A DNA stretch of 64,000 nucleotides from an uncultured Acidobacteriaceae bacterium (lineage in GTDB: Bacteria; Acidobacteriota; Terriglobia; Bryobacterales; Bryobacteraceae). The stretch lies in contig CAWCIF010000001.1 of the NCBI GenBank assembly GCA_963795545.1, positions 601,365 through 665,364 on the forward strand, read 5' to 3'. The notes under the pieces were generated by a model, which saw nothing but the letters and a program-made list of their open reading frames with translations, was not told where the DNA came from and made no database searches. Of this stretch, positions 10,301-37,398 are shown piece by piece; positions within the stretch are counted from its first letter, which is position 1; every line of letters begins with the position of its first letter. Both the position numbers and the translations under genes were made by a program.

Positions 10301-10768
10301 CCGCCTTCCGTGCTGTATGCGCTGGCCCGCGACCCGGCGCTGCAGGACATTTCTCCCGATGTCCCCTCGACAGAAATTGCCGCGCTCGAAACGCGAAAAG
10401 ATCCGGAACTTGCGCCGGATGAAATCGCGCAGACTTTCGGCACTCCCAAGCCCACGCTTACGCATTCGTACCGGCCCGGATTGCTGTACCTGCGCACGTT
10501 CCCCGCGCTGATGGGCTATTCCAGCCGTATTCTGGCCGAGACCTGGGAATCGAACAATCTTTACTATGCAGCGCTGGCCGAGGAGGCGGGCATACCCGTT
10601 TCGCAACTGGACGCTTACGTGCCGGAGTGGAACAAGGCGGTGGTGGAGAATATTTTCGCCACCCACCTGGAAGACTGGCCGGCACTGCTGCGTTCGCTTC
10701 ACGCGGTCGCCGGAAGCGTGATGCAGCGTGAGAATCGATCTCTAGCGGCGAGTAACTCATTGAATTAG
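7391..10768 (+). CDS. large (1125 aa) secreted hypothetical protein, no recognisable domain
   Basis: GTG start with an upstream G-rich Shine-Dalgarno (SD) sequence. Signal-peptide-like N-terminus (LLPLAFLAFASLGGLRSAEN). The frame is uninterrupted for 3.4 kb, and all antisense ORFs are short. It ends 13 nt before the VWFA gene. Confidence 0.7.
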   Translation: MTLIFRGAKPAVRTLLPLAFLAFASLGGLRSAENSPKPGLRDQVLQHESTGDLAGARSILEQEAPSSSSASEQLAEFLERHNDSGSRDAYRKWAAEERDPAQRKLALRQLVLLDFMQAKDADLARDLKDYHAAGGDDLVPPAQRTKPVQYSMVTIPGPLSSFARMAALSTDLAPEDLLPALARNVVTNGYEASGNELLQQTEYLRLLVRYISQARELQAMANKDHKIVIPTCDSEETGNLLKVLGYRMRGSCGGDIVLETVNATRAFLTVDSGFPLTQLEQDLRANHRFELPYAPTRAPVLYNAEYWMAALGRGGQTDFIDAFLSDPSLCRLYLGLSHLDRATADALRKEAPPGKLKIYAHVLDFYGGMFQIRNGAAVVPGSTRSWGSLAGTSPGNPGAFFYKLISTDDGWMASYFDALSRISGPTAAYLTRADHLKRFYEALRGKITSPGPARPVFRSSTELMLLTTSLRIDPNGQPHIPGDLSVWRTLFIKHPNGKYDGKLTRSAASWRTADDFVEALFGLSRKSVENEPLKMFLALNDIDRDRVKPMSAALATRLVNGYKLYGAQYAVFADAPGLSEDSIEHYMDTIAATGSIRDSLLKADAVGTLQSLVEVWRILCRQGSIPAASEDLSFAKLIAPFAHIKQEAELFDAGRAGIDLLLASSGRTTSGSPQEALTQVLVGKIQGPDSSLPGSPAESFARVFDAQRLISLDALFTAADRFGKGPVDAKTIRNLTEQLSRLEEAESIRGSLSAQERNSYTPGYWGERHITQERKVNLENLAKGVDKRDPRGVLAPFLRDSLVGILYAYYAPDGAQLLLTNPLFVRSHDFIGAESTPAEWRATQVAGSGWPESGGGRLVGSLVSLPYALAEAEQNFLTPKREQALIWGDLVPQMIVDVTVNRWRNVSPEQLRWVAVNIERGRTLVAAAGLNGTVEGKVLDALRHYETPGYTEKVDDHLRAGDFADAVAEVPPSVLYALARDPALQDISPDVPSTEIAALETRKDPELAPDEIAQTFGTPKPTLTHSYRPGLLYLRTFPALMGYSSRILAETWESNNLYYAALAEEAGIPVSQLDAYVPEWNKAVVENIFATHLEDWPALLRSLHAVAGSVMQRENRSLAASNSLN

Positions 10769-13381: not shown

Positions 13382-13729
13382 ATGCCAAGTGAAGGCGGGG
13401 GTCGGATCGCCGTTTTGCAGGGAACGCTGGACCTGATCGTTTTGCGGACGCTTCAAAGCATGGGGGCCCAGCACGCCTATGCCATCGCCACGCGGCTGCA
13501 GCAAATTTCCGGCGATCTGTTGCACTTGAATCAGGGCACGTTATATCCGGCGTTGGTGCGGCTGGAACAGCAGGGCAGGGTTAAAGGCACCTGGAGAACG
13601 ACGGAAAGCAATCGCGAAGCGAAGTTCTATTCCATCACCAGGGCCGGGGAAAAGGCGCTGGCGGAGGAGACGAAGCGCTGGCGGCAAATGTCCGGGCTGG
13701 TTGAGAAGCTGCTTTCCGAAGGAGCCTGA
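13382..13729 (+). CDS. PadR-family transcriptional regulator (acidobacterial type)
   Basis: GTLDLIVLRTL...HAYAIATRL...LNQGTLYPALVRLEQQGRVKGTW...REAKFYSITRAGEKAL winged-helix signature. It ends 3 nt before the permease gene. Confidence 0.9.
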   Translation: MPSEGGGRIAVLQGTLDLIVLRTLQSMGAQHAYAIATRLQQISGDLLHLNQGTLYPALVRLEQQGRVKGTWRTTESNREAKFYSITRAGEKALAEETKRWRQMSGLVEKLLSEGA

Positions 13730-13732
13730 TTC

Positions 13733-16392
13733 ATGCGTCGTTTCTTCGCCCGATTTGCAAATTTGTTCCGCAGCCGCAGAGCGGAACGCGAGCTTGCCCG
13801 GGAGATAAGGTCTCACCTCGCGCTCCTGCAAGAGGACTTCGAGCAGCGTGGATTGCCTCCGGAGGCGGCGCAATTGGCTGCGCGCCGCTCTTACGGCGGG
13901 GTTGAGCAGGCCAAGGAACTGCATCGCGAAGCGCGCTCGTTCCTGTGGATAGAGCACCTGATCAAGGATGTCCGCTATGGCGGACGGAACCTGCTGCGGA
14001 GACCGGGTTTCACAGCCGTCGCCGTGATTGCGCTGGCGCTGGGGATCGGTGCAAATACGGCGATCTTCAGCGTAGTGAATGCAGTGTTGCTGCGCCCGCT
14101 GGCGTACAAGGATGCGGACCGGCTGGTTACCATTCTGAATAACGGAACCGATCCAGTGTCGACCGCCAACTACATTGACTGGCGCGATCAGAGCCATTCT
14201 TTCGAAGCAATGGGCGCCGCAGATTACTGGAGCGCGAACCTTATCGACGGCGATGTACCGGAGCACCTGCTGGGCCTTAAGGTGCCACAAAACATGCTGC
14301 CGATGCTTGGCATCAGGCCGCTGCTGGGCAGGCTGTTCATCGCCGGGGAAGACCGGAACGGCTCTGACCATGAAGCGATACTGAGCTATTCGTTGTGGCA
14401 GCGGCGCTTTAATCGCGAACCCGGCGTATTAGGAAAACCGATCATTCTTAATGGCGAGGCGTACACCGTGGTTGGCGTGATGCCGCCAGGGTTTAAGTTT
14501 GCGCCGTTCTGGGCGACGCACGCGGAGTTGTGGGTGCCGGATGCATTTGGCGGCGGCATTCACGATCGGGACAGTAACCACCTGCGCGTTTTCGCGCGGC
14601 TGAAGCGAGGTGTCACGCTCGCGCAGGCACGTGCGGAGATGGCGGCGATTACGGGGCGTTTGGAGAAGCAGTATCCGGCGACGAACCGCAGCGTTCTGGT
14701 TACTCCTCTAAAGGAGAATGTCGTCGGGAAAATTGAAACGCCACTGCTAATGCTACTGGGCGCAGTGGGATTCGTACTCCTGATTGCTTGCGCCAATGTT
14801 GCCCACATGCTGCTGGCGCGCACATCCGACCGGCAGAAGGAAATGGCGGTGCGAGTTGCGCTGGGCGCTAATCGAAGCCGCGTAATAGCCCAGATACTTA
14901 CCGAAACCTTCTGCTGGCAATCACAGGTGCCTCGGCCGGGCTGCTGCTTGCGCTGGGAGGAACGAAGGCTCTGATTGCGCTCAGCCCGGCATACATCCCG
15001 CGCGTCGAGAAGGTGGCGATCGACGGCCATGTTGTGCTCTTTCTGCTCGGTATTACGGTATTGACAGCAGTTGTGTTTGGGCTGATGCCGGCCATGCGCG
15101 CTGCTGCCGGAAATCCCAGCGAGGCACTCAAAGAGGGCGGTCGTGGAGATAGCGACGGCATTCGCCGCAACCGATTGCGAAATTTTCTGGTTGCCTCCGA
15201 ATTCGCGCTGGCCTTCATGCTGTTGATCGGAGCCGGATTGATGATCCGCAGCTTCTTCGCGCTGCAATTGGTCGACCCGGGATTCAATCCGCGCAATGTG
15301 CTCTCGATGGTTGTATCGGTCGCCGGAACGAAAGCGGCCGAGCCGCACCGTCGTGCGATTTTCTACCGCGAACTGCTCCAAAAGATCCGGGCCTTGCCGG
15401 GGGTGAACTCCGCAGGCGCAATCAATCATCTGCCGCTGGCAGGCGATACATGGGGATTGTCATTCAGCATCGAGGGGCGTCCCAAGCCGCGGCCGGGTGA
15501 AGAGCCGATAGCCGTTTACCGCATCGTCATGCCAGGGTATTTCGAGATCATGCGCCTGCCTTTGCGCCGCGGTCGCACCATCACCGGCCAAGATGATGGC
15601 CGCGCGCCCGATGTGGTGATAATCAATCAGCGCGCGGCTGAACAGTATTGGCCAGGCCAAGATCCAATCGGCAAGCGCATTACGTTTGACGAGGATAAAG
15701 GCAAGGCGTCAGACTGGGTAACCATTGTTGGCGTAGTCAAGAATGCAAAGCAGGAAGACTGGGCGGCCGAGCCCGATCCCGAGGTTTACCTTCCGGCGCT
15801 CCAGAGCCGTAATTTTCTGGGAGAGGACAAAGGACCCATCGCGGCGCACATGATGTACATCACGCTGGTAGTGCGCCGCGGTGGGAATCTGACTGATCTT
15901 GCCTCCGCCGTAAAGCACACCGTGCGGTCATTTGACCGCAATCTGCCGACCTCGGATGTCCTCACGATGGAGCGGGTGGTGGCCGACGCGAATGCGCAGC
16001 CTCGCTTTGAGATGCTCTTGCTGACGGTGTTTGGCGCGGTTGCGCTCCTACTCGCGGCAGTAGGGATTTACGGAGTAATGAGCTATTCGGTATCGCGGCG
16101 CACGCGCGAGATCGGAATCCGCATTTCGCTGGGCGCAAGCCGGGCCGAGGTGTTGCGGATGGTTGTGAAGCAAGGCATGCTGCAGGCGCTGGCGGGCACG
16201 GCAGCCGGCTTTATTGGTGCGTTGCTGCTGGCGCAGCTTGTGGCCAAGATGTTGTACGGCGTGCGGCCGACCGATGCCTTGACCTTTGGCGCGGTAGCGA
16301 TCGTGCTCAGCCTGGCGGGGCTGCTTGCTACTTGTGTTCCGGCGCGCAAGGCCACCAGGATTGAGCCCGTGCTGGCATTGCGCAGTGAGTAG
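13733..16392 (+). pseudogene. ADOP-type duplicated MacB/FtsX permease, interrupted by a frameshift (or sequencing error)
   Basis: ORFs 13733-14974 and 15013-16392 are the two halves of one ~885-aa MacB_PCD+FtsX x2 protein. The family sequence continues in the -1 frame from about 14908 ([41 protein letters not shown]...), so one nt is missing near GAAACCTT at 14903-14910. Confidence 0.8.
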
Positions 16393-16410: not shown

Positions 16411-19400
16411 TCAAGCGCGCGCGCGTTTCGCCTGCGTTCGTTTGCCTCCGAATGGTAAAACTCTGCGGGGCTGCGTATCGGCTATAGGCCGTACCCGCAG
16501 CGGCCGTTCCTGTAATATCAGTTCGCTCGCCTGGACCAGGCGATCGGAATGGAACCAGCGCTGGAAAGACCAGTCCTGCAGGACGTTGCAGATTGCCGCC
16601 AGCGTCATTCCCTGATGGTGCGCCATCCAGCAGCGCACCACTTCGCACTTGCGCGAGGAGAAGCCGCGCGGGCGCGACGCGGTGAAATCGGCGGACTCAT
16701 AAAAACCAAAATCTCCCAGCCAATGCCTGCGGACCATGCCGCGCAGATTGGCTACCGCGTTGGCCGGATCAACCATCAGCGCGAGGCAACTGGAATACGG
16801 AGAGATGACCAGCGAGCCTTCTCTCGCCACGCTGAGCGCCAAGCCGGGCACGCCGAAGGCGGCATACTGATAATTTCCTTCGGCATCTCTCCTGCTATAC
16901 GCGGCTTCAGAGATTCCCCACGGTACACCGCGATTGGTTCCGTAAAGCTGTTGCGCGCGCACAGCGGACCGAACTGCCCGGTCCAGCAGCGTGTTCGGGT
17001 GAGACTTCATCCAGATTGCCGGCATCAGGTATTCGAACATGGTGCCGGTCCAAGAGATCAGCACATTCTGGCCCTCGCAGACGGTATGCTGGCGCCCTAA
17101 CCGGAACCAGGCGTCCTGAATCAGTTCCCCCTTTGCCACTGCGATAAAGCCTACGGTACGGCTCTCTGACGCAAGCAGGTCATAGCAGGACTCTACTAAC
17201 TCGCCCTTGCTCACGTCAAAACCAATCGAGAGCAGGTTGCGATGAAGGTTGACAAACATCCCAAAACCCATTTCGCCGGCCAGCAGCCGGGAAGCAGCCG
17301 CCACTTGTTTGAGCCGCGAAGCGAGTTCCTGAAGGCGCGCCCGGCAGCCCGGGATCTCCGCCTCCAGCCGTGAGGCCAAGGCGAAAACTTCACCGGAAGC
17401 AGCGGCCCCGGATTTCAACAAATGCAGTTGCCTCTCCAACTCGTCATAAAACGAGTCCGCATTGTAGGGAGCCAATGGATTCTTCTGAACTCCGAACGCG
17501 GGCGCAGCAGCGCGCAGAGCCTGAAATTCAGGTGCGCACCACGGCATGAAGCTTTGCGCTTCCTGGCGAAGCGCTTCAATTCGGGTCTGAACACCGGCAC
17601 TCCACCACGAATTCTGCTTGGGCGGATCGGAAGCCTCCGCCCGCTGAGCAGCCGGCATCTGCAGGAGCTTAGGCAACCAAACATTCGGATCGCGAGAGCT
17701 GAACCCCGTTGCGCTCATTTCGCCCGCAAGCCGCTGGTAATCGCGCAGCCCGTCCAGCGCGTTGGGCCTTATCAAAGCCTCATGCAGCAGATCTATGCAC
17801 CCTTGCTCCAGAGTCCACAAGGAGGCAACCAGGTTTCCGCTATCCACACTTGAAAGAAATAAGGGTTCAAGCGGCTTCATGCTAACCGTCTCGTACCAAT
17901 TCGAAAAATGTCCGAAGTACCGCGGCAGCTTGTTTGCGGAGCGCAGTGTCAGATCCGTCAAAGAAACAAATTCCGAGACGGTCAAATAGCCGAATTCCAC
18001 CGCGGCCTGGCGTGAGTTCAGCAGCAGACCGAGGTTGGTCGGCGAGATGCGCTCGGCAATCCGGTACGGCTCCTCCTGCACGTTGTCCGGAATTAGCCAG
18101 TGGTTGCCAGCATTACTGAATTCGGCGAAGTATCGCCAGGTCCGCAAGGCGGTTTCGCGCAGGAATAATCGATCTTTGCTCGCCAGATTCAGATCGTCGG
18201 CATGGGGTGAGCGGTTAAGCCAGCTCGCCAGCGGCTTCGAGCAGCACCAGGCGATCACAAATGGCAGCGCATAGCCGGCCGCGTCGGGCTTTAGCAGCAA
18301 GGCGAGGCCAATTACAACTGCAAGCGCCGGAACCCAGTTAAGATAAATGTCCACCGGAGTGCGCTTTCTGATGCCAAGCTCGGCTTCCGTAGCAGTTTCC
18401 CATTCCAACAGGCGGCTATGCGTGATGGTGCTGCGGACCACCGTTCTGATGATCGCGTCTAATGCCACCAGAGCCTGATGCGCCAGGAAGGCGATGTTCA
18501 GCAGGATGCTGACATGCGAGGTGGCAAAATCGAAAAGCGCTTCCCGAAAGGTCAGGCGGTTTTGCCGCGCGATGGCCCGGATCGTGGCAAAGACCAACCG
18601 GAAATAGATAGGTAGAAACAGCAGAGCCAGTGTAACCAGGGTCCAAAACCGTGGACCTCCGGGCAGCCAGAACCAGCCCGCGACCAGTAGCGCGAACGTG
18701 GCGGGTTCAACCAGGCTGCGCCGCAAATTGTCCACAATCTTCCAGCGCGATACCAGCGATATCGGATTTTCAGCCAGCCGCCGCGATTCGTCCGGAACGC
18801 GATTGAAGATCCAGCGGACGATTTGCCAATCGCCCCGCAGCCAGCGGTGCTTGCGCCGGTTATAAGCGCTGTAATGAGATGGGTAATCGTCTATGACTTC
18901 GATATCAGAGGCCAGCCCGGCGCGCGCATAGGCGCCTTCAATCAGGTCATGACTTAGCAGCGCATTCCTCGGAAAACGATGTTCCAGAACCTGCCTGAGG
19001 GCGTCGACATCGTAAATGCCTTTACCAGTAAATATGCCCTCGCCATAAAGATCCTGATAAATGTCCGAAATCGCCCGCGAGTAAATGTCGAAGCCTGTTT
19101 GTCCGGAGTAGATGCTTGCCAGCCGTGAGCGGGTCGCCGAGTGTACGCTGATGCCCACGCGCGGCTGCAGAATTCCATAGCCGCGGGTTACGATATTCAG
19201 ATCCGGATCAATCAGCGGCCGGTTCAAGGGATGGCCCATGGCGCCAATCATCTGCTGCGCCGACCCTCTGGGCAATTGCGTATCGGAATCGAGCGTCAGA
19301 ACGTAGCGGATTTTCGGCAAACGTGTCAGGTCGCCTGCTTTGACAGGAAACGGATCGTAAACTTTGCGAAGAAGCTGGTTGAGATCGAGCAGTTTCCCGC

Positions 19401-20916
19401 GTTTGCGCTCCCATCCCATCCAGGCGCCCTCGCGCGGGTTATAGACCCGATGCCGATGGAACAGATAAAACCCGCCATAGGGCTCAGCCGCGTATCTGCG
19501 ATTCAGTTCCTCGATTAATTGGCTGGCCAGGTCCACGCGCCGGTCCTGCTCGCCGGCAGGTTCGGCCGTGTCGGGAAGATCTGTCAGCAGCGCATAAAAG
19601 ATGTTCCGATCACGATTCACCAGATAGCGAACTTCCAGATCCTCCACAAGCTGCCGAATCTGCTTGTCATTGATGAGCAGTGTTGGGATGGCAACCATGG
19701 TTGCGCACGCTGGATCTACTGCCTTCGAGAAATCGAGCTTCGGCAAGGCATGCGGAGTCAGAACGGACGTTACCAGGTAATTCATCAACTCCACTGCCGC
19801 CTGGGTCGCGGGCAGGATCAGAAGCAGCGCTCCGATAAAAATTCCCCAACCACCATGCGTTTTGACAAGGCTCAGGGTGAGAAACACCACCGTGATGAGT
19901 GTGACGAACTCGATGCCGATGATGTAAATCTCATCCGGGAATTTCCGGAAGAGCCGCTCTATTGAAGACCCCAAGGAAGGCCGATAGCCAATGCGGTGTA
20001 GCAGTTCTTCGGAGCCATCGCGATCCAACAGGTAATAGCCGACGTGCCGCAGCCGATCCCGCAGGGCTTCGGGGGCCTGGCGATCGATAACGGCCTCTTC
20101 CGCCATGCTCACCGCGATTCTGGCAGCTTCCCTCTCGCTTACGTCGGAATGAGCGGCAATTTTGGCGATCCTCTGCCGGTACCGTTCCCGGCTCTCGAAG
20201 TCCATGCGCGGATAAATGCCCGCTGGATCCAGATTCAACACGCGATGCACCACCGAAAGCCGCTCCAGCGTGCGTCGCCAGTCAATCTCGCCAATCAGGC
20301 GCAGGCTTGTAATCAGGCTTCCAACATCGAATGAAGGAGCATTTGGCCCGTTCAATAGAAACGCGTCGAAAGCCTTGCGGCCGCGCTCGGCGATGAACTC
20401 CAGCAAGCTGAGTTTGAGCGCAGTCAGCATGCCCCAGAGTTCGGAAAGGCGCAGCGGTTCGGTTTCCTGTACTGCGTCGATATAGAGACTGAATGCTTCT
20501 TCCGTAAGCTGGAACTTAGTCGCGGTCAGCAAGCTGCGCGCCAGCACAATGCATCTGGGGATCGATTCATCGCTGGATGTGCGGACAACCGGCAACCGGC
20601 CCAACAGCCGCATGGAATCGCGAAGTGCCTGGGCATCTGTCCGAATCAGCCGGAAATTGTCGTACAGCCATCTGAGATCGCCGCTGGGAGCATCGAAGGT
20701 CAGCTCGTATAGTTCGCGTTCCAGGATTCGCAACCTGTTGGTTGCTGTTCTGTACAGCTCGCGAGGGCGGCGGGAATGGCGCTTGCCCGATAACCAGGCG
20801 CAAGATCGCGCCGCTTGTGTTGCCTGGGCGCGCAGTTCCGGCCGCTCTTCGGCGGTCGTGCCGTTGGGCGGCTCTGCCGGTGGCTGGGCTTCCATTTGCC
20901 TGGTTGGTTCAGTCAT
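16411..20916 (-). CDS. cyclic beta-1,2-glucan synthase-like protein (GT84 domain + downstream alpha/alpha-type domain), 1501 aa, no GH94 half
   Basis: GT84-type block: YVLTLDSDTQLPRGSAQ...GYGILQPRVGISV...GKGIYDVDA...SHDLIEGAYARAGLASDIEVIDDYPSHYSAYNRRKHRWLRGDWQI. TM clusters lie before and after it. The C-terminal region (SWTGTMFEYLMPAIWM...PWGISEAAY...YQYAAFGVPGLAL) resembles the segment following GT84 in ChvB/NdvB/Cgs. Confidence 0.75.
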   Translation of the reverse strand: MTEPTRQMEAQPPAEPPNGTTAEERPELRAQATQAARSCAWLSGKRHSRRPRELYRTATNRLRILERELYELTFDAPSGDLRWLYDNFRLIRTDAQALRDSMRLLGRLPVVRTSSDESIPRCIVLARSLLTATKFQLTEEAFSLYIDAVQETEPLRLSELWGMLTALKLSLLEFIAERGRKAFDAFLLNGPNAPSFDVGSLITSLRLIGEIDWRRTLERLSVVHRVLNLDPAGIYPRMDFESRERYRQRIAKIAAHSDVSEREAARIAVSMAEEAVIDRQAPEALRDRLRHVGYYLLDRDGSEELLHRIGYRPSLGSSIERLFRKFPDEIYIIGIEFVTLITVVFLTLSLVKTHGGWGIFIGALLLILPATQAAVELMNYLVTSVLTPHALPKLDFSKAVDPACATMVAIPTLLINDKQIRQLVEDLEVRYLVNRDRNIFYALLTDLPDTAEPAGEQDRRVDLASQLIEELNRRYAAEPYGGFYLFHRHRVYNPREGAWMGWERKRGKLLDLNQLLRKVYDPFPVKAGDLTRLPKIRYVLTLDSDTQLPRGSAQQMIGAMGHPLNRPLIDPDLNIVTRGYGILQPRVGISVHSATRSRLASIYSGQTGFDIYSRAISDIYQDLYGEGIFTGKGIYDVDALRQVLEHRFPRNALLSHDLIEGAYARAGLASDIEVIDDYPSHYSAYNRRKHRWLRGDWQIVRWIFNRVPDESRRLAENPISLVSRWKIVDNLRRSLVEPATFALLVAGWFWLPGGPRFWTLVTLALLFLPIYFRLVFATIRAIARQNRLTFREALFDFATSHVSILLNIAFLAHQALVALDAIIRTVVRSTITHSRLLEWETATEAELGIRKRTPVDIYLNWVPALAVVIGLALLLKPDAAGYALPFVIAWCCSKPLASWLNRSPHADDLNLASKDRLFLRETALRTWRYFAEFSNAGNHWLIPDNVQEEPYRIAERISPTNLGLLLNSRQAAVEFGYLTVSEFVSLTDLTLRSANKLPRYFGHFSNWYETVSMKPLEPLFLSSVDSGNLVASLWTLEQGCIDLLHEALIRPNALDGLRDYQRLAGEMSATGFSSRDPNVWLPKLLQMPAAQRAEASDPPKQNSWWSAGVQTRIEALRQEAQSFMPWCAPEFQALRAAAPAFGVQKNPLAPYNADSFYDELERQLHLLKSGAAASGEVFALASRLEAEIPGCRARLQELASRLKQVAAASRLLAGEMGFGMFVNLHRNLLSIGFDVSKGELVESCYDLLASESRTVGFIAVAKGELIQDAWFRLGRQHTVCEGQNVLISWTGTMFEYLMPAIWMKSHPNTLLDRAVRSAVRAQQLYGTNRGVPWGISEAAYSRRDAEGNYQYAAFGVPGLALSVAREGSLVISPYSSCLALMVDPANAVANLRGMVRRHWLGDFGFYESADFTASRPRGFSSRKCEVVRCWMAHHQGMTLAAICNVLQDWSFQRWFHSDRLVQASELILQERPLRVRPIADTQPRRVLPFGGKRTQAKRARA

Positions 20917-20928
20917 TCACAACGCTCA

Positions 20929-22755
20929 CTACCGATAGCTGGACGCCTGCAGCTCAAACATTTCAGCGTATCTGCCGCCGCGCGCCACAAGACGCTCGTG
21001 GCTCCCCTCCTCAGCGATACAACCGTCCTCGAGAACAATAATTCGTTCCGCCATTCGCACAGTTGAAAAGCGATGAGAAATGAAAAGGGCCATTTTGCTC
21101 ACCGTCAGTTCATTAAAGCGCTCGAACACTTCATATTCGGCTCGAGCGTCCAGCGCCGCAGTCGGCTCGTCCAATATGAGAACCTGCGCCTCGCGGAGGT
21201 AAGCACGGGCCAGAGCTATTTTCTGCCACTCGCCGCCCGACAGATCTACGCCGCCTTCAAAGCGCCGCCCCAGCATCTGTTTGTAACCTAGCGCCAAGCG
21301 TTCAATTACTCCGTCGGCCAAGCTCTTCTCAGCCGCGCCCCGAATCCGGTCCATATCGTTGAGGTATTCGATTCGGCCCACCGCAATGTTTTCCTGAGCG
21401 GTCATCTCGTAGCGCATGAAATCCTGGAAAATGACGCCAATCTCGCGGCAGAGGTCTTCGATATCGTAATCCCGCAGGTCCACTCCATCCAGTAAGACGC
21501 GCCCGGCTGTTGGATCGTAAAGCCGGGTGATCAGCTTCACAATGGTTGTTTTGCCCTGGCCGTTCTGGCCAATGAGAGCGATGCGTTCACCCGGTTCCAG
21601 GCGGAAATTCAGATGATGCAGGATGAGGCGCTTGGTTCCAGGATAGGAGAATGAGACATCCTGAAACTCGAAGCCTTCAGTAATAGGCCGGGGCGCCGGC
21701 AGGGGGTTGGGCTTCGAGGTAACACTAGGCCGCATGTCAAAGAAGGCCAGGAGGTCGGTCAAGAATAGAGCCTGGTCGGCAATGCTCGACAGCGTCGAAA
21801 ACATTTGTGAGATGTTGTTCGACGCATTCATGATAGACGCAGTAAGGAAGACCAGCGTGCCGACATTGAACACTCCATGTACGGTCTCCCAGATGGCCCA
21901 GGCATAAGCGCCGTAGTAGCCGGCGGTACTCAGCATGGAAAGCAGTGAAACCGCGGTCAAGCGCCTGCGAAACAGAGCAATGTTTTCGTCGAAAATTCCA
22001 TTTGAAAGGCTTGTGAACCGGTCGGTAAGGAAGCGGCTGAGCCCAAAAAGCTTCAGTTCCTTGGCCGCTTCCTTGCTCCCGCCCACTTGCCGCAAATAGT
22101 CGAGTTCACGTTTTACGGGAGTTTGCCGGAAGTTCTTTGCGTAATTCAAGAAAGCGAAATGGCTTTCACCCAGGAACGCAGGGATGAGGCAGACGATAAG
22201 CACCAGCAGGAGCCACGGCGAGAAATAAACCAGGGCCACGGACAACGAAATAACAGTGATTGTCTGCTGAAACAGGCGGCCTATTGACTGGATCATCCCC
22301 AGGCGGTCCGTCGCCTGCACGCGTGCCCGTTCCAGGCGGTCGTAAAAGACCGGATCTTCGTAACTTTGCAGGTCTAGTTTCGACGCATGGTCCATGACCC
22401 GGATGCTGATATGGCGCATGTAACGGTCGGCCAGCACCGCATCGTAATAGTCGATGAGCCGGCCCAGGATGCTGCCGATGATGGCCAGCGAAAATTCCAG
22501 GGCAGTGAGCCACCACAGGTGCGGCGAAATAGTTTCTTTATGGTCAACGATGGCCTTAACGTTGTTGATAATCAATCCCGTCACCCAGGCCGTGCTTACC
22601 GGAACGAGGGAAACGACGACGCGGAACAAGAGGCCGAGGGTGACGACATAGCGCCCTGATTCCCATACGATCTTCAAGACCGGCGGGACGTTCTTCAAGG
22701 CCTGCAGGCGCTCGCGCCATGCCGAAGAGAGTTGCTGGTCTTTAGCTTTTTTCAC
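20929..22755 (-). CDS. ABC exporter, fused permease/ATPase (MsbA/ChvA-NdvA-like)
   Basis: Six-TM N-terminal half, then Walker A GQNGQGKTT, signature LSGGEWQKIALARA and Walker B LILDEPTAALD. It ends 12 nt upstream of the glucan synthase-like gene on the same strand. Confidence 0.85.
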   Translation of the reverse strand: MKKAKDQQLSSAWRERLQALKNVPPVLKIVWESGRYVVTLGLLFRVVVSLVPVSTAWVTGLIINNVKAIVDHKETISPHLWWLTALEFSLAIIGSILGRLIDYYDAVLADRYMRHISIRVMDHASKLDLQSYEDPVFYDRLERARVQATDRLGMIQSIGRLFQQTITVISLSVALVYFSPWLLLVLIVCLIPAFLGESHFAFLNYAKNFRQTPVKRELDYLRQVGGSKEAAKELKLFGLSRFLTDRFTSLSNGIFDENIALFRRRLTAVSLLSMLSTAGYYGAYAWAIWETVHGVFNVGTLVFLTASIMNASNNISQMFSTLSSIADQALFLTDLLAFFDMRPSVTSKPNPLPAPRPITEGFEFQDVSFSYPGTKRLILHHLNFRLEPGERIALIGQNGQGKTTIVKLITRLYDPTAGRVLLDGVDLRDYDIEDLCREIGVIFQDFMRYEMTAQENIAVGRIEYLNDMDRIRGAAEKSLADGVIERLALGYKQMLGRRFEGGVDLSGGEWQKIALARAYLREAQVLILDEPTAALDARAEYEVFERFNELTVSKMALFISHRFSTVRMAERIIVLEDGCIAEEGSHERLVARGGRYAEMFELQASSYR

Positions 22756-22856
22756 GCCGAGATGGTATCTGTAAACGGCTTTTCGAGTGAGCCTGTCAGG
22801 TTCAACTGCTGCTCTTAGCCTACAATTCCCTTTTAAGAGAAGGAATACGATTCAGC

Positions 22857-23462
22857 ATGAAACCCATGTTCCTGAAGGATGTAGAGCAGCATCGCGGCGA
22901 GGATAATTACACACGGGCGATCGAAATGATGCGCCGTTCCGGGCCGGAATACCCGCAGATTCTGCACATGTTCTCTTACAAGATGAACGCCACGGTGCAC
23001 CTGGAGCGATTTACGCAGGAGATCATGCGCGAGCCAGCGCCGCTTTCGCCCGGAATTCGCGAATTGATCGCAGCCTATACGTCGCACCTGAATCAGTGCC
23101 CATTTTGAACGAAGTCGCACGCCGCGGTCGCGGCGGAACTCTTAGAAGATGAGCAGCTCGTTACGAGTGTCCTCGCTGATGTAGAGACGTCAAAACTGTC
23201 TGATTCGGAAAAGGCGCTGTTCCGGTTTGTTCGCAAAGTGAATGGGGACTCCGTATCCATTGGTCCGTCCGATGTCGGCTCCCTCCACCATGCCGGATAC
23301 AGCGATGGAGCGATTTACTACGCGATCAGTGTGTGCTCACTGTTCAATTTCTATAATCGGTGGATTGACGCCAGCGGAGTGCACCCCATGAGCGACGAAG
23401 CGCATAGGTTGGGCGCGAAGCGATCTGCGATACATGGTTATTCGCGGAGTTCTCAAAAATGA
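22857..23462 (+). CDS. AhpD-like / carboxymuconolactone decarboxylase-family peroxidase-related protein, candidate selenoprotein (UGA 23106-23108 read as Sec)
   Basis: ORFs 22857-23108 and 23238-23462 share one frame, and nt 23109-23237 have no stop. The read-through product is ...IRELIAAYTSHLNQCPF[U]TKSHAAVAAELLEDEQLV...ALFRFVRKV...GYSDGAIYYAISVCSLFNFYNRWIDASG..., which follows the CMD-family CxxCxxxH core and its C-terminal half. A SECIS-like hairpin follows the UGA. Confidence 0.6.
23112..23143 (+). promoter_or_regulatory. candidate bacterial SECIS stem-loop
   Basis: CGCCGC (23120-23125) pairs with GCGGCG (23130-23135) around loop GGUC (23126-23129). A possible extension is C23118:G23136 with A23119 bulged, plus AAG 23112-14 : CUU 23141-43. 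The loop starts 20 nt after the U of UGA. Confidence 0.5.
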
Positions 23463-25537
23463 ACTACTTCACGAACCGGCTCCTGCCCGCGTGCTTGCTG
23501 GTCTTTTCGAGCGGCGCGTTTGCGGCGGATTTCAGGCCGCCTGCTGTGCCGCTAATCACACACGACCCGTACTTCAGCATCTGGTCGATGGCCGATCATC
23601 TCACGGACGCCCCTACCAAGCACTGGACCGGAACCATTCAATCTCTATCGAGCGTGGTGCGCGTGGATGGCAAAATTTACCGGGTCATGGGCACCGATCC
23701 GCGCGGCGCCCCGGCGTTGCCGCAAACCCACCTCGAAGTGTTTCCCACGCACACCATTTATGATTTCGAAGGCTCCGGTATCCGGCTCACCCTTACGTTC
23801 TTCACGCCAGCCCTGGCGCGTGATCTCGACGTCCTCTCGCGTCCGGCTAGCTACCTGACCTGGCGCGTACAGTCTGCCGACGGCAGCAGCCATAACGTGC
23901 AAGTGTATTTCGACGCCGGTTCCGACCTCGTCGTGAACATTCCACAGGAGCGTGTGTCCTGGGCTCGATACCGCGACGGAGATCTGCAGATTCTGCGCAT
24001 GGGCACACAGCAGCAGCAGCCCGTGCTCCAAAAATCAGGCGATAACCTGCGCATCGACTGGGGTTATCTGTATGTCGTGATGCCTCCCGGTGGCGCTGGT
24101 TCTGAAATCGCTAATACACGCCGCGAGGCAATGGGATCTTTTATCAAAAAGGGCAGCCTTCCGGATTCCGATAATCTCCGCGGCATGGAACCGTACGAAG
24201 AATCCATGCCCGTACTTGCATCCTCATTCGATTTGGGCAGAGTGGGCACAGCAGCGGTTTCCCGGCATCTCGTCATTGCTTACGATGAGGTTTTCGCCAT
24301 CGAGTACTTCGAGCGGAAGCTGCGCCCCTATTGGAACCGGGACCGGCTAGGGCCGGCTGGAATGCTTCGCGCCGCGCTGCGCGACTACCAGGAGCTTGAT
24401 CAGCTTGCCCAGAATTTCGATCAAGGTCTCATGCGCGATTTGCAGCGCGCAGGTGGTGAAGATTATGCGCGGCTCTGCGCGCTGGCGTATCCGCAGACTC
24501 TTGCCGCGCACAAACTGACCGCCGACCTGCAGGGAACCCCACTCTTCTTTTCCAAAGAAAACTTCAGCAACGGCTCAGTGGATACGGTTGACGTCACCTA
24601 TCCTAGCTCGCCATTTTTCCTGCTGTTCAATCCCCATTTACTGGAAGCTCAGCTCAAACCGATTTTCGACTACGCAAATCTTCCCCGCTGGCATTTCCCG
24701 TTTGCCCCGCACGATCTGGGGAGATACCCGCTGGCGGACGGCCAGCAGTACGGAGGGCGCGAGACTTCGGAAGAGAACCAGATGCCAGTAGAAGAGAGCG
24801 GCAATATGCTGCTGATGACGGCGGGCATAGCGCAGGTGGAGGGCAATGCAGATTTCGCGCAGCATTACTGGCCGATGCTTACGAAGTGGGCGGAATATCT
24901 GAAAGCCAAAGGATTCGATCCGGAGAACCAGCTCAGTACTGACGATTTCGCCGGCCATCTGGCTCACAACGCGAATCTGTCTATCAAGGCCATCCTCGCC
25001 TTGGGCGCTTACGGCAAATTGGCCGGAATGCTAGGGCACGCCGATATAGCATCTCAATACACTGCGCTGGCGCGAGAGGATGCCCGGCTATGGGTTCAAA
25101 AGGACAACGATGGCGATCATTTCCGCCTTGCATTCGACCGCGCCGGCACCTGGAGCCAGAAGTACAACCTGGTTTGGGACAGGCTGCTGGGCTTGAAGCT
25201 TTTTCCCCCGGAAGTGGCCGAAAAGGCGCTTGCTTTCTACCAAAAGCATGTCAATCAATATGGGCTGCCGCTGGACAACCGGGCCGATTACACCAAGCTG
25301 GATTGGCTGACTTGGACCGCAACTCTGGCCAATTCGCAGAAGCAGTTTTTACTATTTTTCGAGCCCGCCTACCGGTTTGCAAATGAATCCCCCAGCCGGG
25401 TCCCGCTGACTGATTGGTACGACACCAAGACGGGGAAACAGGTTGGATTTCAGGCTCGCTCGGTGGTAGGCGGGATTTTTATCAAAATGCTTACCGATCC
25501 GGCGATCTGGAAAAAGTACGCCAACGCGGCGCAGTAG
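23459..25537 (+). CDS. secreted glutaminase-A-like protein (DUF5127/DUF4965/DUF1793 architecture), probable glycoside-hydrolase-like fold
   Basis: Signal peptide, then FRPPAVPLITHDPYFSIWSMADHLTD..TKHWTG....VRVDGKIYRVMG, typical of this family, with a C-terminal alpha/alpha-toroid-like region. Its ATG overlaps the upstream stop (ATGA, 23459-23462). Confidence 0.65.
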   Translation: MNYFTNRLLPACLLVFSSGAFAADFRPPAVPLITHDPYFSIWSMADHLTDAPTKHWTGTIQSLSSVVRVDGKIYRVMGTDPRGAPALPQTHLEVFPTHTIYDFEGSGIRLTLTFFTPALARDLDVLSRPASYLTWRVQSADGSSHNVQVYFDAGSDLVVNIPQERVSWARYRDGDLQILRMGTQQQQPVLQKSGDNLRIDWGYLYVVMPPGGAGSEIANTRREAMGSFIKKGSLPDSDNLRGMEPYEESMPVLASSFDLGRVGTAAVSRHLVIAYDEVFAIEYFERKLRPYWNRDRLGPAGMLRAALRDYQELDQLAQNFDQGLMRDLQRAGGEDYARLCALAYPQTLAAHKLTADLQGTPLFFSKENFSNGSVDTVDVTYPSSPFFLLFNPHLLEAQLKPIFDYANLPRWHFPFAPHDLGRYPLADGQQYGGRETSEENQMPVEESGNMLLMTAGIAQVEGNADFAQHYWPMLTKWAEYLKAKGFDPENQLSTDDFAGHLAHNANLSIKAILALGAYGKLAGMLGHADIASQYTALAREDARLWVQKDNDGDHFRLAFDRAGTWSQKYNLVWDRLLGLKLFPPEVAEKALAFYQKHVNQYGLPLDNRADYTKLDWLTWTATLANSQKQFLLFFEPAYRFANESPSRVPLTDWYDTKTGKQVGFQARSVVGGIFIKMLTDPAIWKKYANAAQ

Positions 25538-25635: not shown

Positions 25636-26241
25636 TTACGAGCGGCTGAGCGCTGCACGCCTCCGGAATCTGGACAAGCCCAGCAAAAGCAGGCCGCTCA
25701 TCCCCATCAATCCGTAGGTCGCTGGTTCCGGCGTGCCCGAAGTGGGAGGACCTACCACAATGTTTGCTGTGGGCAGACCCTCTAAACTAAAAAAGGTGCT
25801 CGCTCCCGGCGCCAGTCCGCCGACGAAATTGACGACGCCGGTATTGACGTCGGTGATCGAGAAGGTGACGAAGTCACCCGTATAGTCGTAGGGGTCGGTC
25901 GTGCTGATTCCCATGGAACAGTTTCCTGCCGCCCCAAAAGAGCACATACCGTCGCCTTCCAGGCCGAAAATATCTGATCCGGAAAGCGGCAGTGCCCCGA
26001 TTGCGTGCGCTGAGTTGTTCAAAACGCCGACAAGCGAGTCTTCTACGTTATCGTAAGGCGGTTGCGTACTGTCCAGGGCCACCGTTGCGCTTCCATTGGC
26101 GTTAACCGTGATAAGGACATCGCAAGATGTAGCGCTCCCGACGGTTGGACACTCGGTGAACGGCGGGGAAGTTGCGGCAGCCATCGCCGTGCCAATTGCG
26201 CCAGTGGCAAAAAGCGCCAGCAGTATTCCTAATTTTTTCAT
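25636..26241 (-). CDS. PEP-CTERM sorting-domain secreted protein
   Basis: Signal peptide. The C-terminus is GTPEPATYGLMGMSGLLLLGLSRFRRR (PEP motif + TM + Arg cluster). Confidence 0.85.
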   Translation of the reverse strand: MKKLGILLALFATGAIGTAMAAATSPPFTECPTVGSATSCDVLITVNANGSATVALDSTQPPYDNVEDSLVGVLNNSAHAIGALPLSGSDIFGLEGDGMCSFGAAGNCSMGISTTDPYDYTGDFVTFSITDVNTGVVNFVGGLAPGASTFFSLEGLPTANIVVGPPTSGTPEPATYGLMGMSGLLLLGLSRFRRRAALSRS

Positions 26242-26545
26242 CTATTTACCTCCGCAGGTTTAAAATGGCCTGGCCTATATATGGCCTAAGCTGAATCTAA
26301 GTCTAGGGTTAGTTCGATTGGGTTAACAAGCCCAGTGGATGTAGTTAGGTACCGGCCAACTAAGCCGTTTGTACACATACCGCCCCGGACGGGAATAAGA
26401 GGGCTGGGAGTAGGAGAGTCTACATAGGGCAGGGTAGTATCTCCCGCTCTCCTGAGCAACGGCTGTGCTACTCTAAAAAAGGTTTCCAGCCAACTTGGGA
26501 GGCAACGGCGTGTCTGCGCCTGAGCCGCTTGGACCAATCAAACTC

Positions 26546-27253
26546 ATGAGTCAAAAGCCCGGTAAGAAATACGAAGCCGCGGCCAAGCAGGTAGCTCCAA
26601 AGCCTTATCAGCTTGCCGACGCGGTCAATTTAGTTCAAAGGATCAAGTTCACACGATTCGACGAAACCGTTGAGGTGCATATGCGCCTAGGGGTCGATCC
26701 GAAGCATGCCGACCAGATGGTTCGCGGCACTGTTGTTCTGCCCAACGGACTGGGTAGATCGAAGCGTGTTCTGGTGATCGCCTCAGGCGATAAGATCCGT
26801 GAGGCGCAGGAGGCTGGGGCCGATTTCATCGGCGGCGAGGACATGGTCACCAAAATACAGACTGAGAACTGGACAGACTATGACGCCGTGATTGCCACTC
26901 CGGATATGATGCGCTCGGTGGGGCGGCTTGGCAAAGTGCTTGGCCCGCGCGGGCTGATGCCGAACCCCAAGACCGGCACCGTCACGACCGACGTCCGCAA
27001 CGCGATCCTGGAGATCAAAGCCGGCAAGGTGGAGTTCCGTGTAGATAAAACCGGCGTGATCCATGCTCCGGTGGGCAAAGTCAGTTTCGCCAGCGACAAA
27101 CTGCTGGAGAACACCAGCAGCCTGATTCAGGCTGTTATCAAGGCGAAGCCATCAGCCGCCAAGGGCAAATACGTCAAGAGCGCGACCCTGTGTTCGACGA
27201 TGGGTCCCGGTGTGCCGCTTGACGTGACGTCATTTAACGCCAAGGTTGTATAG
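26546..27253 (+). CDS. rplA: 50S ribosomal protein L1
   Basis: [16 protein letters not shown]...[33 protein letters not shown]...[31 protein letters not shown]. An alternative in-frame GTG start at 26510 sits 7 nt after GGGAGG. Confidence 0.95.
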
Positions 27254-28732: not shown

Positions 28733-31700
28733 ATGCCCAACGTGTCAAAAGGATCTCTCCGCGAGAGAGTCGATTTTTCGAAGATTAAAACTTCGATCCC
28801 CATCCCTAACCTCATTGAGGTACAGAAGCGATCATACGAGCGCTTTCTGCAAATGGACCTGCTTCCGAAGGAGCGTGAAGATGCGGGTCTGCAGAGTGTC
28901 TTCAGCTCTGTCTTCCCCATCTCCGACTTTCGCGGCCTGAGCCAGCTCGAGTTCGTCGATTACTCAATTGGAAACTGGGAGTGCAAGTGCGGCAATCTGA
29001 AGGGTCTGCACCACCTCCGCACCATTTGCCGCAATCCGAACTGCGGCGCGGAAATTCGCACCGATCCATTTCATGCCGGTGACGTACTGTGCCAAAAGTG
29101 CGGCACTTTCAATAAAAACATCGTGACCTTCTGCAACCGTTGCGGCGATCCCGTGGCGCTACAGCTCAAGTACGACGTGCCGGAATGCGAAGAGCGCGGC
29201 ATGACGTACGCGGCTCCCTTAAAGGTCACCATCCGCCTGACGGTTTACGACAAGGACCCGGAGACCGGGAACAAGACTGTTCGAGACATCAAGGAACAGG
29301 AAGTGTTCTTTGGCGAAATCCCGCTGATGACCGAAAACGGCACCTTCATCATCAACGGCACCGAGCGCGTGATCGTTTCTCAATTGCACCGATCGCCCGG
29401 CGTCTTTTTCGAACGCGTCCAGACGCAAGGCTACTTTCTCGGCAAGATCATTCCATATCGCGGCAGTTGGGTGGAATTCGAATACGACAACAAAAACCTG
29501 TTGCATGTCCGGATCGATCGCAAGCGCAAATTCTACGGCACGGTTTTTCTGCGGGCGCTTGGCCTGAAAACCGACGCCGACATCATCCGGGCGTTCTATA
29601 AGCTCTCTACCATCTCGCTGAAGAACAACAAGCTGCTGTGGGGCGTTAACGACAGCCTTGTGGGCATGAAACTCTCGCATGCCATTAGCAACAAGGGCGG
29701 CGAGCAGGTTGTTCCGCAGGGCCGCAAAATCACCAACTCCGTCTTCCGCGAGATCCAGAAGGCCAAGATTGAGCAGGTGGAAGTTGCATCCAACGACCTG
29801 GAAGGCGCCTACGTTGCCGCGGACGTCATCGACATGTCCACGGGCGAAGTGCTGATTGAAGCCAATCACGAACTGACGTCAACCGGAATCGGCAAGCTGG
29901 CCGAGGCTGGAATCGAGAGTTTCGAGATCTTCTTCCCGGATCGCGATGATGCCGGCAACGTGATCTCCGCAACCTTGCGCAAAGACGCCGTGAAAAGCCA
30001 GAGTGACGCGCTGCTTGAAATTTACCGGAAGCTGCGTCCGGGCGATCCTCCCACTTTGGATACCGCTACCCAGCTTTTCCAGGGTATGTTCTTCGACTCG
30101 CGCAAGTACGATTTCTCGCGCGTGGGCCGCATGAAGTTCAACATCAAGCTCTACGACAAGGCTGATTCAACGCCGCTGGACAAGCGCACGCTCGATCAGA
30201 AGGACTTTACCGATACCATCCTGTATCTGCTGAAGCTTCGTAAAGGTATCGGGTCGGTGGACGATATCGACCATCTTGGTAACCGCCGCGTGCGTGCGGT
30301 AGGCGAGCTTCTCGAAAACCAGTTCCGTATCGGGCTGGTCCGCATGGAGCGCGCCATCAAGGAAAAGATGTCGGTCTACCAGGAAATGTCGACAGCCATG
30401 CCGCACGACCTGGTAAACGCCAAGCCAGTTATGGCCGCCATTCGCGAGTTCTTTGGTTCCAGCCAACTGTCACAGTTCATGGATCAGACCAACCCGCTTT
30501 CGGAGATCACGCACAAGCGGCGCCTCTCCGCGCTCGGTCCAGGTGGTCTGTCGCGCGAGCGCGCCGGATTCGAAGTCCGCGACGTGCACCCGACCCACTA
30601 CGGCCGTATTTGTCCTATCGAAACGCCGGAAGGTCCGAATATCGGGCTGATCTCGTCCCTCTCCTGCTTTGCCCGCATCAACGAGTACGGCTTCATTGAG
30701 AGCCCCTACCGCCGGATTCGTGATGGCGCGCTGGTGGATGAGGTTAGACTCCTCAACCCCGGCGACACGGATTTCAAAGTTGGCCAGGTGGTCTCCCGCG
30801 AGGCGATCGACAAAGCCAACACGGCTCTTAGCGCCAAGAAACAACATGCGGAGTTCGAAGCGCACTCTGATTACCTTTCCGCCTGGGAAGAAGACAAGTA
30901 CATCATTGCCCAGGCAAACGTGGCAATCGACGACCATGGAAGGATTGTTGACGATCTGGTGAATGCTCGTCAGGCCGGCAACTTCGTGCTGAAGCACCGC
31001 GACGAGATCGAGTATATGGACGTGAGTCCGAAACAGCTTGTCTCGGTTGCGGCGAGCCTGATTCCATTCCTCGAGAACGACGATGCGAACCGTGCGCTGA
31101 TGGGCTCGAACATGCAGCGCCAGGCAGTGCCGCTACTGCGCGCCGAGGCTCCCTACGTGGGAACCGGAATGGAGCGCGTGACTGCGCGCGACTCCGGCGC
31201 GGTGGTCATCTGTAAGCGACCCGGCGTGGTGGATTCGGTCGACAGCGAACGGATTATCGTGCGTGTCGAGGGCGGTGCGCACGAAGGGCAGATGTCGCGC
31301 GAGGTTGGCGCTGATATCTATCAGCTCACTAAGTTCAAACGTTCGAACCAGAACACCTGTATCAGCCAAAAGCCGATCGTCTTCCAGGGACAGAAGGTCA
31401 GGAAGGGCGATGTTCTCGCCGACGGCCCTTGCACCGAAGCCGGCGAACTCGCCTTGGGCCGCAACGTCCTGGTAGCGTTCATGCCGTGGCGCGGCTACAA
31501 TTTCGAGGACGCGATTGTGGTCAGCGAGAAGCTGGTCAAGGACGATTACTACACTTCGATTCACATTGAAGAATTCGAAATCGAAGCGCGCGATACCAAG
31601 CTTGGACCGGAGGAGATTACTCGCGATATTCCAAATATCGCTGAGTCGTTCCTCCGCAATCTGGACGAGAGCGGCATTATCCGCGTTGGCGCAACGGTGA

Positions 31701-33037
31701 AGCCCGGCGACATTCTGGTCGGCAAGGTGACCCCTAAAGGCGAGACTCAGCTCACTCCGGAAGAGAAGCTGCTGCGCGCCATCTTCGGCGAAAAGGCCGG
31801 CGACGTGAAGGATGCTTCGCTGTACTGCCCGCCGGGCATTGAGGGCACCATTGTCGATTGCAAGGTGTTCTCGCGTAAAGGCGCTGAGCTGGACGAACGC
31901 TCCAAGCAGATTCTGCAATTGCAGGAAGAGCGCATGCACCGCAATCTGGATGACGAAAAGCGCATCCTGAGCGATGAGCGCGCGAAACGCCTGGAAGAAC
32001 TCCTCAAAGGCAAGGAGCTGCTGGCCGACCTGCACGACGAAAAGACCAACAAGAAGCTGCTCTCGAAAGAGATCCCGCTTACCAGGGATGTGCTCGAGAA
32101 GATTCGGGCTCGCGATCTGAAGCGCATGAGGCTCAATACCAGGGATATACGCCTCAATGAACAGATCGACGAGATCGAAGAGATGACTTCGCGCCAGATC
32201 GCGGTTCTCGAAAAAATTACCGAAGAGAAAATTGCGAAGCTGCGCAAAGGCGATGAACTGCCTCCAGGCGTAATCAAGCTGGTGAAGGTCTATATCGCCA
32301 TGAAGCGCAAGCTTTCAGTCGGCGACAAAATGGCTGGACGGCACGGCAATAAAGGCGTCATTGCCCGCATCGTGCCCGAAGAGGACATGCCCTATCTGCC
32401 GGATGGTTCTCCGGTTGAGATCGTTCTGAATCCGCTGGGCGTTCCATCCCGTATGAACGTCGGCCAGGTTCTTGAGACGCATCTTGGCTGGGCGGCCGCG
32501 AAACTGGGGCTGCACTTCGCTACGCCGGTATTCGACGGCGCCACAGAGAAGGACATAAAGGCGCGCTTGACGGAAGCTGAACTGCCCACCTCGGGCAAGA
32601 TCACGCTTTTTGACGGCTTGACGGGCGCGCAATTCGAGCAGCCTGTTACGGTCGGCTACATTTATATGCTCAAATTGAGCCACCTGGTGGATGACAAGAT
32701 TCACGCGCGCTCCATCGGGCCATACTCGTTGATCACGCAGCAGCCGCTGGGCGGTAAGGCGCAGTTCGGCGGGCAGCGGTTCGGCGAAATGGAAGTCTGG
32801 GCGCTGGAAGCATACGGCGCTGCATATATCCTGCAGGAATTGCTAACGGCGAAATCCGACGATGTTTACGGCCGGGCCAAAATCTACGAAGCCATCGTGA
32901 AAGGCGAGGCCGCGGCGGAGCCCGGTGTGCCTGAATCGTTTAATGTTTTAATCCGTGAGCTGCAGAGCCTCTGCCTCGACGTGGAACTGATGAAGAAGCC
33001 GCGCGAGATGCAGGACCTGGCGCATGCCGCGGACTGA
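28733..33037 (+). CDS. rpoB: DNA-directed RNA polymerase beta subunit (1434 aa) with a Cys-rich N-terminal insertion
   Basis: Conserved rpoB blocks throughout ([87 protein letters not shown]). Confidence 0.98.

Positions 33038-33165: not shown

Positions 33166-37398
<4,233 letters not shown>

Follow-up and report, generated by a model that had tools for sequence, protein, structure and literature searches.

AhpD-like proteins (COG2128) in which selenocysteine (Sec) takes the place of the second cysteine of the C-x-x-C redox motif were reported in 2005 from the Sargasso Sea, as 27 CxxU sequences with predicted Sec insertion sequence (SECIS) elements (PMC1088965), and in the GOS data the family 'AhpD-like 1', likewise CxxU, is with 299 sequences among the most abundant (PMC2398784). 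In 2006, a few sequenced genomes, such as that of Alkaliphilus, were listed with AhpD-like selenoproteins, and the Acidobacteria were already credited with three selenoprotein families (PMC1794560). The family has since appeared as 'AhpD-like protein, TIGR01926, CxxU' in the table of a 2026 review of the prokaryotic selenoproteome (PMC13188914) and in BSepDB (PMC13326102). Here we analyze a gene located at positions 22857-23462, on the plus strand, of a 64-kb stretch of contig CAWCIF010000001.1 from an uncultured Acidobacteriaceae bacterium (hereinafter the window), which conventional gene calling breaks in two at an in-frame TGA. From the comparative data described below, we conclude with high confidence that these coordinates delimit a single intact gene for an AhpD-like selenoprotein of about 22 kDa, in which the UGA at codon 84 most probably specifies Sec. 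The premise of the initial annotation of this locus, namely that AhpD-like proteins are a known bacterial selenoprotein family, is borne out by the literature (PMC1088965, PMC2398784, PMC13188914).

The predicted protein has much in common with the described CxxU family (COG2128/TIGR01926): it matches the same protein model, would carry Sec in place of the second Cys, is encoded with a stem-loop that presents a G in a small apical loop, and has widespread homologs of the Cys form. Unlike the described members, which come mostly from marine metagenome reads and from a few genomes, it belongs to a soil and peat clade of Bryobacterales in which all of the approximately 160 orthologs examined are of the putative Sec form. 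In the published accounts of AhpD-like selenoproteins, we found neither this clade nor its particular SECIS named or described.

In the window translation, 22857-23462 is one plus-strand frame of 202 codons, with a terminal TGA at 23460-23462 and a single internal stop, the TGA at 23106-23108; there is no other stop and no frameshift. The open reading frame (ORF) list compiled with genetic code table 11 splits this frame into 22857-23108 (83 aa) and 23238-23462 (74 aa, with an internal GTG start), both in the same plus-strand frame, and the 129 nt between them (23109-23237) are free of stops. Read through, the gene yields 201 residues, including residue 84 at the TGA, in exact agreement with the initial annotation, in which the two same-frame ORFs, the sole intervening stop and the length of the product had all been given. 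The coding sequence appears complete, considering that homologs of about 200 aa share its MKPMFL/MEPMFL start and that the entropy at the three codon positions has a coding pattern both before and after the TGA; a possible Shine-Dalgarno sequence, AAGGA, can be read at 22840-22844, 12 nt 5' of the ATG.

The family assignment proposed at the outset, a CMD (carboxymuconolactone decarboxylase)/AhpD-like 'peroxidase-related enzyme', holds. For scoring, residue 84 (UGA) was set to Cys; the 201-residue sequence then reaches 89.8 bits against the NCBIfam model TIGR01926 'peroxidase-related enzyme' (cut-off 81.8), 28.9 bits against the AhpD core-domain model TIGR00778 (27.8) and 31.8 bits against Pfam CMD, PF02627 (23), and there are weaker matches to NCBIfam models whose names label them explicitly as '(seleno)protein' relatives of AhpD. 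Among known structures, the matches are single-domain AhpD or 'peroxidase-related' chains (6k40, 3c1l, 2oyo, 2pfx and 2prr; E = 1e-9 to 1e-13). These alignments cross the TGA without a gap, such that the C-x-x-C-x-x-S-H of the structures falls on C-P-F-U-T-K-S-H of the query, within the peptide LNQ-C81-P-F-[UGA84]-T-K-S-H88-AAVAAELL. The UGA had been placed at the second Cys of a C-x-x-C-x-x-x-H motif in the initial annotation, and both the 88 Cys-form homologs described below and the structures 6k40, 3c1l and 2oyo put it there.

The correspondence extends in part to the catalytic relay, which consists of Glu118, Cys130, His132, Cys133 and His137 in the AhpD of Mycobacterium tuberculosis (MtAhpD) and of Glu36, Cys48, Tyr50, Cys51 and His55 in PA0269 (PMC3141380). 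In the protein from the window, the respective residues are E69, C81, F83, U84 and H88, with spacings identical to those of E118-C130-C133-H137, so that four of the five MtAhpD residues are matched (E69, C81, U84 and H88) and the position of His132 is taken by an invariant Phe83. Glu69 (codon 23061-23063), a predicted proton-relay residue, lies 12 residues before Cys81, the same distance as between Glu118 and Cys130 or between Glu36 and Cys48 (PMC3141380), and is invariant in two homolog alignments. Cys81 (TGC, 23097-23099), the first and probably resolving Cys of CxxU, is invariant in the Sec-form clade and corresponds in spacing to Cys130 of MtAhpD (PMC3141380). His88 (CAC, 23118-23120), four residues after the predicted Sec84, is spaced like His137 relative to Cys133 (PMC3141380), and across the homolog alignments E69, F83 and H88 are invariant or nearly so. 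The predicted protein thus shares with MtAhpD, PA0269 and the structures 6k40, 2oyo, 2pfx and 3c1l the all-helical CMD/AhpD core and the Glu-(12)-Cys-x-x-Cys-(4)-His arrangement, here E69-C81-x-x-U84-H88. It differs from MtAhpD and PA0269 in having predicted Sec at the second Cys and Phe83 at the position of His132/Tyr50, in lacking an ahpC neighbour, and its sequence similarity to the solved structures, at the E-values given above, is modest. By analogy, we would regard it as a selenol/thiol oxidoreductase of the alkylhydroperoxidase type. With PcaC, the gamma-carboxymuconolactone decarboxylase for which Pfam CMD is named, it shares the CMD domain, weakly, at the 31.8 bits already quoted; unlike PcaC, it has an AhpD-type redox motif and no pca (protocatechuate) gene context, and nothing in our results supports a decarboxylase function.

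Is the internal TGA peculiar to this contig? A search of a protein collection returned 909 relatives of the 201-residue protein, and the 20-odd closest matches (about 60-80% identity) are all JGI calls on contigs of about 1 kb that have 'W' at the motif column. Among the 120 best matches, 24 are CxxW, 88 CxxC, four TxxC and one CxxE, with Cys in the more distant ones. When the DNA of two of the 'W' proteins was fetched, W turned out to be TGA translated under an alternative code (L001, 353-355; L002, 625-627), and the top 23 or so protein matches are TGA forms. A metagenome scan yielded 80 loci (62-85% identity), and a scan of species-representative genomes another 80 (64-90%), all in metagenome-assembled genomes (MAGs) classified as Bryobacteraceae, Bryobacterales, Solibacteraceae, 'Acidobacteriaceae' or Terriglobia. 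TGA-form orthologs are present in the complete Bryobacteraceae chromosomes OZ244728.1, OZ255724.1 and OZ255821.1. In the resulting set of 163 orthologous sequences, comprising the window, 82 metagenome loci and 80 Bryobacterales/Acidobacteriota MAGs at 62-90% identity, the motif column is TGA in 163/163; TAA, TAG, TGG and TGY are each found in none. This settles whether the codon in orthologs is TGC/TGT or TGA, a point raised in the initial annotation: it is TGA throughout the clade, with Cys in distant homologs, a degree of conservation that is far beyond chance.

The same survey shows how such genes fare in databases. The expectation that standard gene callers would report a truncated gene or a pseudogene is right only in part: it holds for the table-11 ORF list, but the JGI callers in many cases kept the gene whole on short contigs by reading TGA as Trp, giving 'CPFW'. 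On such contigs, the calling had evidently changed to a code with TGA=Trp, and Sec forms are thus disguised as Trp forms; the spurious Trp entries are P0001-P0023, P0028, P0044 and P0065, with the DNA checked for L001 and L002. Separately, the T-x-x-C homologs P0021, P0039, P0072 and P0073, which have lost the first Cys, and the C-x-x-E homolog P0027 are possible one-Cys or non-redox variants.

The second line of evidence is an RNA element 3' of the UGA. The spacer of 11 nt (23109-23119, a direct reading of the sequence) is followed at 23120-23135, within the H-A-A-V-A-A codons, by a SECIS-like hairpin, CGCCGC-GGUC-GCGGCG, with a 6-bp stem, whose first base is the last base of the His88 codon, and with a loop G-U at 23127-23128. 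RNAalifold, applied to an ungapped alignment of 79 sequences, predicts exactly this stem. By pair counting, 98.9% of the alignment cells of the stem and the loop-closing pair are paired, compared with 28-82% in controls in which the 3' side was shifted by one to three columns. Two-sided changes occur at three of the seven pairs: the basal pair alternates between C-G and U-A, a mid-stem pair does likewise by way of U-G intermediates, and loop positions 1 and 4 are G-C in 46 sequences and A-U in 32; the covariation score was reached by none of 500 shuffles. The loop thus reads GGUC or AGUU, and its G-U, at nt 22-23 counted from the U of UGA, is present in 162 of the 163 sequences. The segment 23100-23160, named in advance as the place to look for a SECIS, thus holds a covarying hairpin at the canonical distance.

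The hairpin is also visible as a constraint on synonymous sites. Among 76 unique sequences, the codons at +4 (CAC, 75/76), +5 (GCC, 70/76), +8 (GCG, 73/76) and +9 (GCG, 68/76) are nearly frozen. Codons +6/+7 switch jointly between GCG-GUC (50 sequences) and GCA-GUU (32). The third-position entropy of Ala codons is 0.24-1.07 bits inside the hairpin versus 1.23-1.65 bits elsewhere in the gene. Four Cys-form genes that encode HAAVAAE do so with four different codon strings, so that the synonymous freeze appears to be specific to the TGA forms; this control set is small (n=4), and three of the four are closely related to one another.

The canonical element, that of Escherichia coli fdhF, offers a direct comparison. 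Its determinants are an upper stem-loop of nt 15-31 that starts 11 nt from the UGA, a bulged U17 and the apical-loop G23/U24 (PMC8659212); it reads UGA, 11 nt, then GGUUGCA-GGUC-UGCACC, and the fdhF 43-mer is matched at 100% in 5,419 of 5,426 E. coli genomes. The element in the window agrees with that of fdhF in the length of the spacer (11 nt), in the start of the stem at nt 15 (23120) and in the GGUC loop with its G-U; unlike fdhF, it has no lower helix in the RNAalifold prediction. The G-C/A-U covariation at loop positions 1 and 4 suggests that these bases form a closing pair, with only the G-U extruded.

The third line of evidence comes from relatives. In L134, a Solibacteraceae MAG, the segment 544-6026 encodes selB and selA on the minus strand, followed on the plus strand by selD, tRNA-Sec and the AhpD-like TGA gene, which starts about 300 nt after tRNA-Sec. 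Here, selB scores 330 bits against TIGR00475 (cut-off 242), selA 462 bits against TIGR00474 (268) and selD 381 bits against TIGR00476 (125), and the tRNA, with anticodon TCA by ARAGORN, scores 79.5 bits against Rfam RF01852 (gathering score 47). In this genome, the ortholog physically belongs to the sel locus. In another related locus, L114, the distance between the AhpD-like ortholog and a selD homolog is about 5.6 kb, and together these findings indicate that the lineage has the Sec trait.

The mechanism that we propose is the following. As the ribosome nears the UGA, SelB-GTP-Sec-tRNA(Sec) would bind the hairpin that starts 11 nt downstream, with the G-U presented in its loop; Sec would be delivered at the UGA in competition with RF2, and translation would proceed to the true stop at 23460-23462. 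In the protein, Sec84 would stand for the second Cys of the AhpD C-x-x-C-x-x-x-H center and, together with Cys81, His88 and Glu69, could form a selenenylsulfide/selenol-thiol redox couple that may act on a peroxide or on an oxidized partner protein.

Several observations weigh against this reading or parts of it. To begin with, one of the four Cys-form controls, L166 (homolog P0092), forms an equivalent, in-register 6-bp hairpin, CGCGGC-GGUU-GCCGCG. The GC-rich codons of an Ala-Ala-Val-Ala-Ala stretch are inherently self-complementary, and hairpin potential alone is therefore not diagnostic; the presence of a hairpin as a discriminator between Sec and Cys forms is weakened, and the argument for a SECIS has to rest on synonymous-site constraint and covariation. 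In the same vein, the 66-nt region 23100-23165 folded alone, in which the hairpin does appear, is no more stable than shuffled sequences (z = -0.04); thermodynamics alone proves nothing here, and it is the comparative data that carry the case. A search of the whole window with Rfam at gathering thresholds gave no match, and a permissive search of 23060-23220 gave only noise matches (mir-3432 and sR43); Rfam does not model bacterial SECIS of this kind. Compared with fdhF, the G-U stands one nucleotide nearer the UGA, at nt 22-23 rather than 23-24, and the stem is an uninterrupted 6-bp G-C helix without the bulged U17 on which the E. coli element depends; the SelB of this lineage may not require the bulge. 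The 64 kb of the window contain no tRNA genes by ARAGORN and no selA, selB or selD by tblastn with the L134 proteins; given that the window is part of a genome of several Mb, this absence is uninformative, and the Sec trait of the source genome itself is inferred from relatives. A second selenoprotein gene was not found in the window with a crude filter for TGA flanked by open, third-position-GC-rich frames, which also missed the true case at 23106; the only TGA candidate, at 13727, was rejected, being the end of a complete PadR gene beside a permease gene. Among the flanking genes, to which the search for peroxiredoxins was confined, none is of the ahpC type. Finally, Sec insertion, SelB binding, and the substrate and chemistry of the enzyme are all inferred from sequence.

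Among the alternatives, the one that survives best, quite improbable as we consider it, is that the UGA is read without Sec, either as Trp or Gly under an alternative code (tables 4/25) or through suppression by a near-cognate tRNA (Trp, Cys or Arg). The JGI calls do give W at this codon, Sec machinery is not seen in the window, and incorporation of Cys by tRNA(Sec), or a near-cognate route, under selenium limitation would be compatible with the sequence. A reassigned code is hard to reconcile with the window itself, where the code is standard: TGA ends 13 of the 38 long ORFs, including this very gene. Free Trp coding would permit TGG, which no sequence has at this column. Against any Sec-less decoding stand also the identity of the column, which is the redox Cys of the family, the constrained SECIS-type hairpin 3' of the UGA, and the presence of selD, tRNA-Sec, selA and selB beside one of the orthologs.

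A pseudogene, or an assembly or sequencing error, in which TGC or TGT of an ordinary CxxC gene became TGA, would take a single base change, and the table-11 caller does show two fragments. This explanation can be considered effectively refuted. At the neighbouring Cys81 codon, 51 sequences have TGC and 30 have TGT, a drift implying ample time for change at the TGA column; that the latter is nevertheless TGA in all orthologs, from independent metagenomes and MAGs, with no TAA, TAG or TGY, excludes a decayed or misread codon. Moreover, the 76 unique ungapped sequences have mean per-codon entropies (codon positions 1/2/3) of 0.43/0.34/1.25 bits 5' of the TGA and 0.59/0.43/1.31 bits 3' of it, a pattern indicative of purifying selection on the protein, in the same frame, on both sides of the codon, and no further stops or frameshifts have accumulated.

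The same in-frame conservation spans the 129-nt interval 23109-23237 and leaves hardly any room for a pair of short genes, one for an N-terminal protein of 83 aa and one for a protein of 74 aa started at GTG 23238, even though both ORFs are present in the list. Cys-form homologs are single proteins of about 200 aa, solved single-domain AhpD-like chains run across the break (residues 36-184 of 2pfx_A align with query residues 31-179, spanning the split point), and the residues that define the family as invariants, the motif His88 and FNFYNRW, are encoded after the stop.

The codon directly before the UGA requires a separate comment. Phe83 is encoded by UUU (23103-23105) with an almost invariant third base: TTT is found in 76/76 unique metagenome sequences and in 77/79 genome loci (153 of the 155 TGA forms counted), compared to about 80% TTC at the other Phe codons of the gene and TTC at codon -1 in 4/4 of the Cys-form controls. 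It yields a UUUU run ahead of GA, which may perhaps serve as recoding context. A programmed +1 frameshift at UUU-UGA, akin to that at CUU-UGA in prfB, would give the run a role, and is scarcely credible, in that both conservation and homology continue in the zero frame past the site, where the TGA counts as one codon in ungapped alignments with Cys-form homologs and PDB chains.

What, then, does a Sec-encoding gene in this clade signify? The result is mainly a correction of annotation, for this gene and for the approximately 160 Bryobacterales/Acidobacteriota orthologs that are called as fragments, and a caution that 'CPFW' calls on short contigs pollute protein databases; the known picture of selenoproteins and recoding is unchanged by it. 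The wider implication is that widespread soil and peat Acidobacteriota keep Sec decoding and an apparently fixed Sec in an AhpD-like redox protein, which bears on selenium use in aerobic soils. Specialists may take an interest in the near-invariant UUU ahead of the UGA, in the possible pre-adaptation of the AAVAA stretch and in the SECIS-like element itself, which is very compact, lacks a bulged U and has a loop-closing pair that covaries. These can be combined in a more specific proposal, which we judge to be rather unlikely, namely that the Bryobacterales clade manages with an exceptionally small SECIS, which has no bulged U and consists of a G-C stem of 6 bp, a closing pair that covaries and an extruded G-U. 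This hairpin would be cut from the family's conserved Ala-Ala-Val-Ala-Ala stretch, with UUU as a further and hitherto undescribed recoding determinant. As the AAVAA stretch is inherently self-complementary and is seen to fold in some Cys-form genes as well, the family would have been pre-adapted for Cys-to-Sec conversion. If this is true, that about 160 of 160 orthologs in aerobic soil acidobacteria have Sec fixed would point to a selenium-dependent redox function in which Cys cannot replace it.

The genomic neighbourhood, made up of an ABC exporter, a glucoamylase-like protein, a GtaA-like protein, then rplA and probable rpoB/rpoC, yields no functional clue for the AhpD-like gene. A conserved operon context was considered and rejected: gene order is conserved no further than the closest relative, L083 (Bryobacteraceae MAG SMAG_U15758), whose neighbouring proteins are 88-95% identical to their counterparts in the window. 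Downstream, a 692-aa GtaA-like 'glutaminase A' six-hairpin protein with a signal peptide is encoded on the plus strand at 23459-25537; its start overlaps the stop of the AhpD-like gene by ATGA (23459-23462), an arrangement also found in L083. It is followed on the same strand by the gene for ribosomal protein L1 (rplA, 26495-27253, by Pfam match) and by ORFs of 1434 and 1410 aa (28733-33037 and 33166-37398), candidates for rpoB and rpoC as their size and position suggest. No Pfam match was obtained, at the thresholds used, for the ORFs at 7391-10768 (plus strand, 1125 aa), 25636-26241 (minus, 201 aa) and 61077-61940 (minus, 287 aa). Upstream and divergent, on the minus strand at 16411-20916 and 20929-22755, lie a 1501-aa protein with a glucoamylase domain and the ABC exporter, again in an arrangement shared only with L083. 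Farther upstream, a 451-aa ORF on the minus strand (11884-13239) combines helix-turn-helix and rve integrase-core domains and is an insertion sequence-type transposase. The PadR-family regulator encoded at 13382-13729 on the plus strand ends in TGA and is followed by a MacB_PCD/FtsX-type permease in two plus-strand ORFs in different frames (13733-14974 and 15013-16392), perhaps a frameshifted large permease or two genes.

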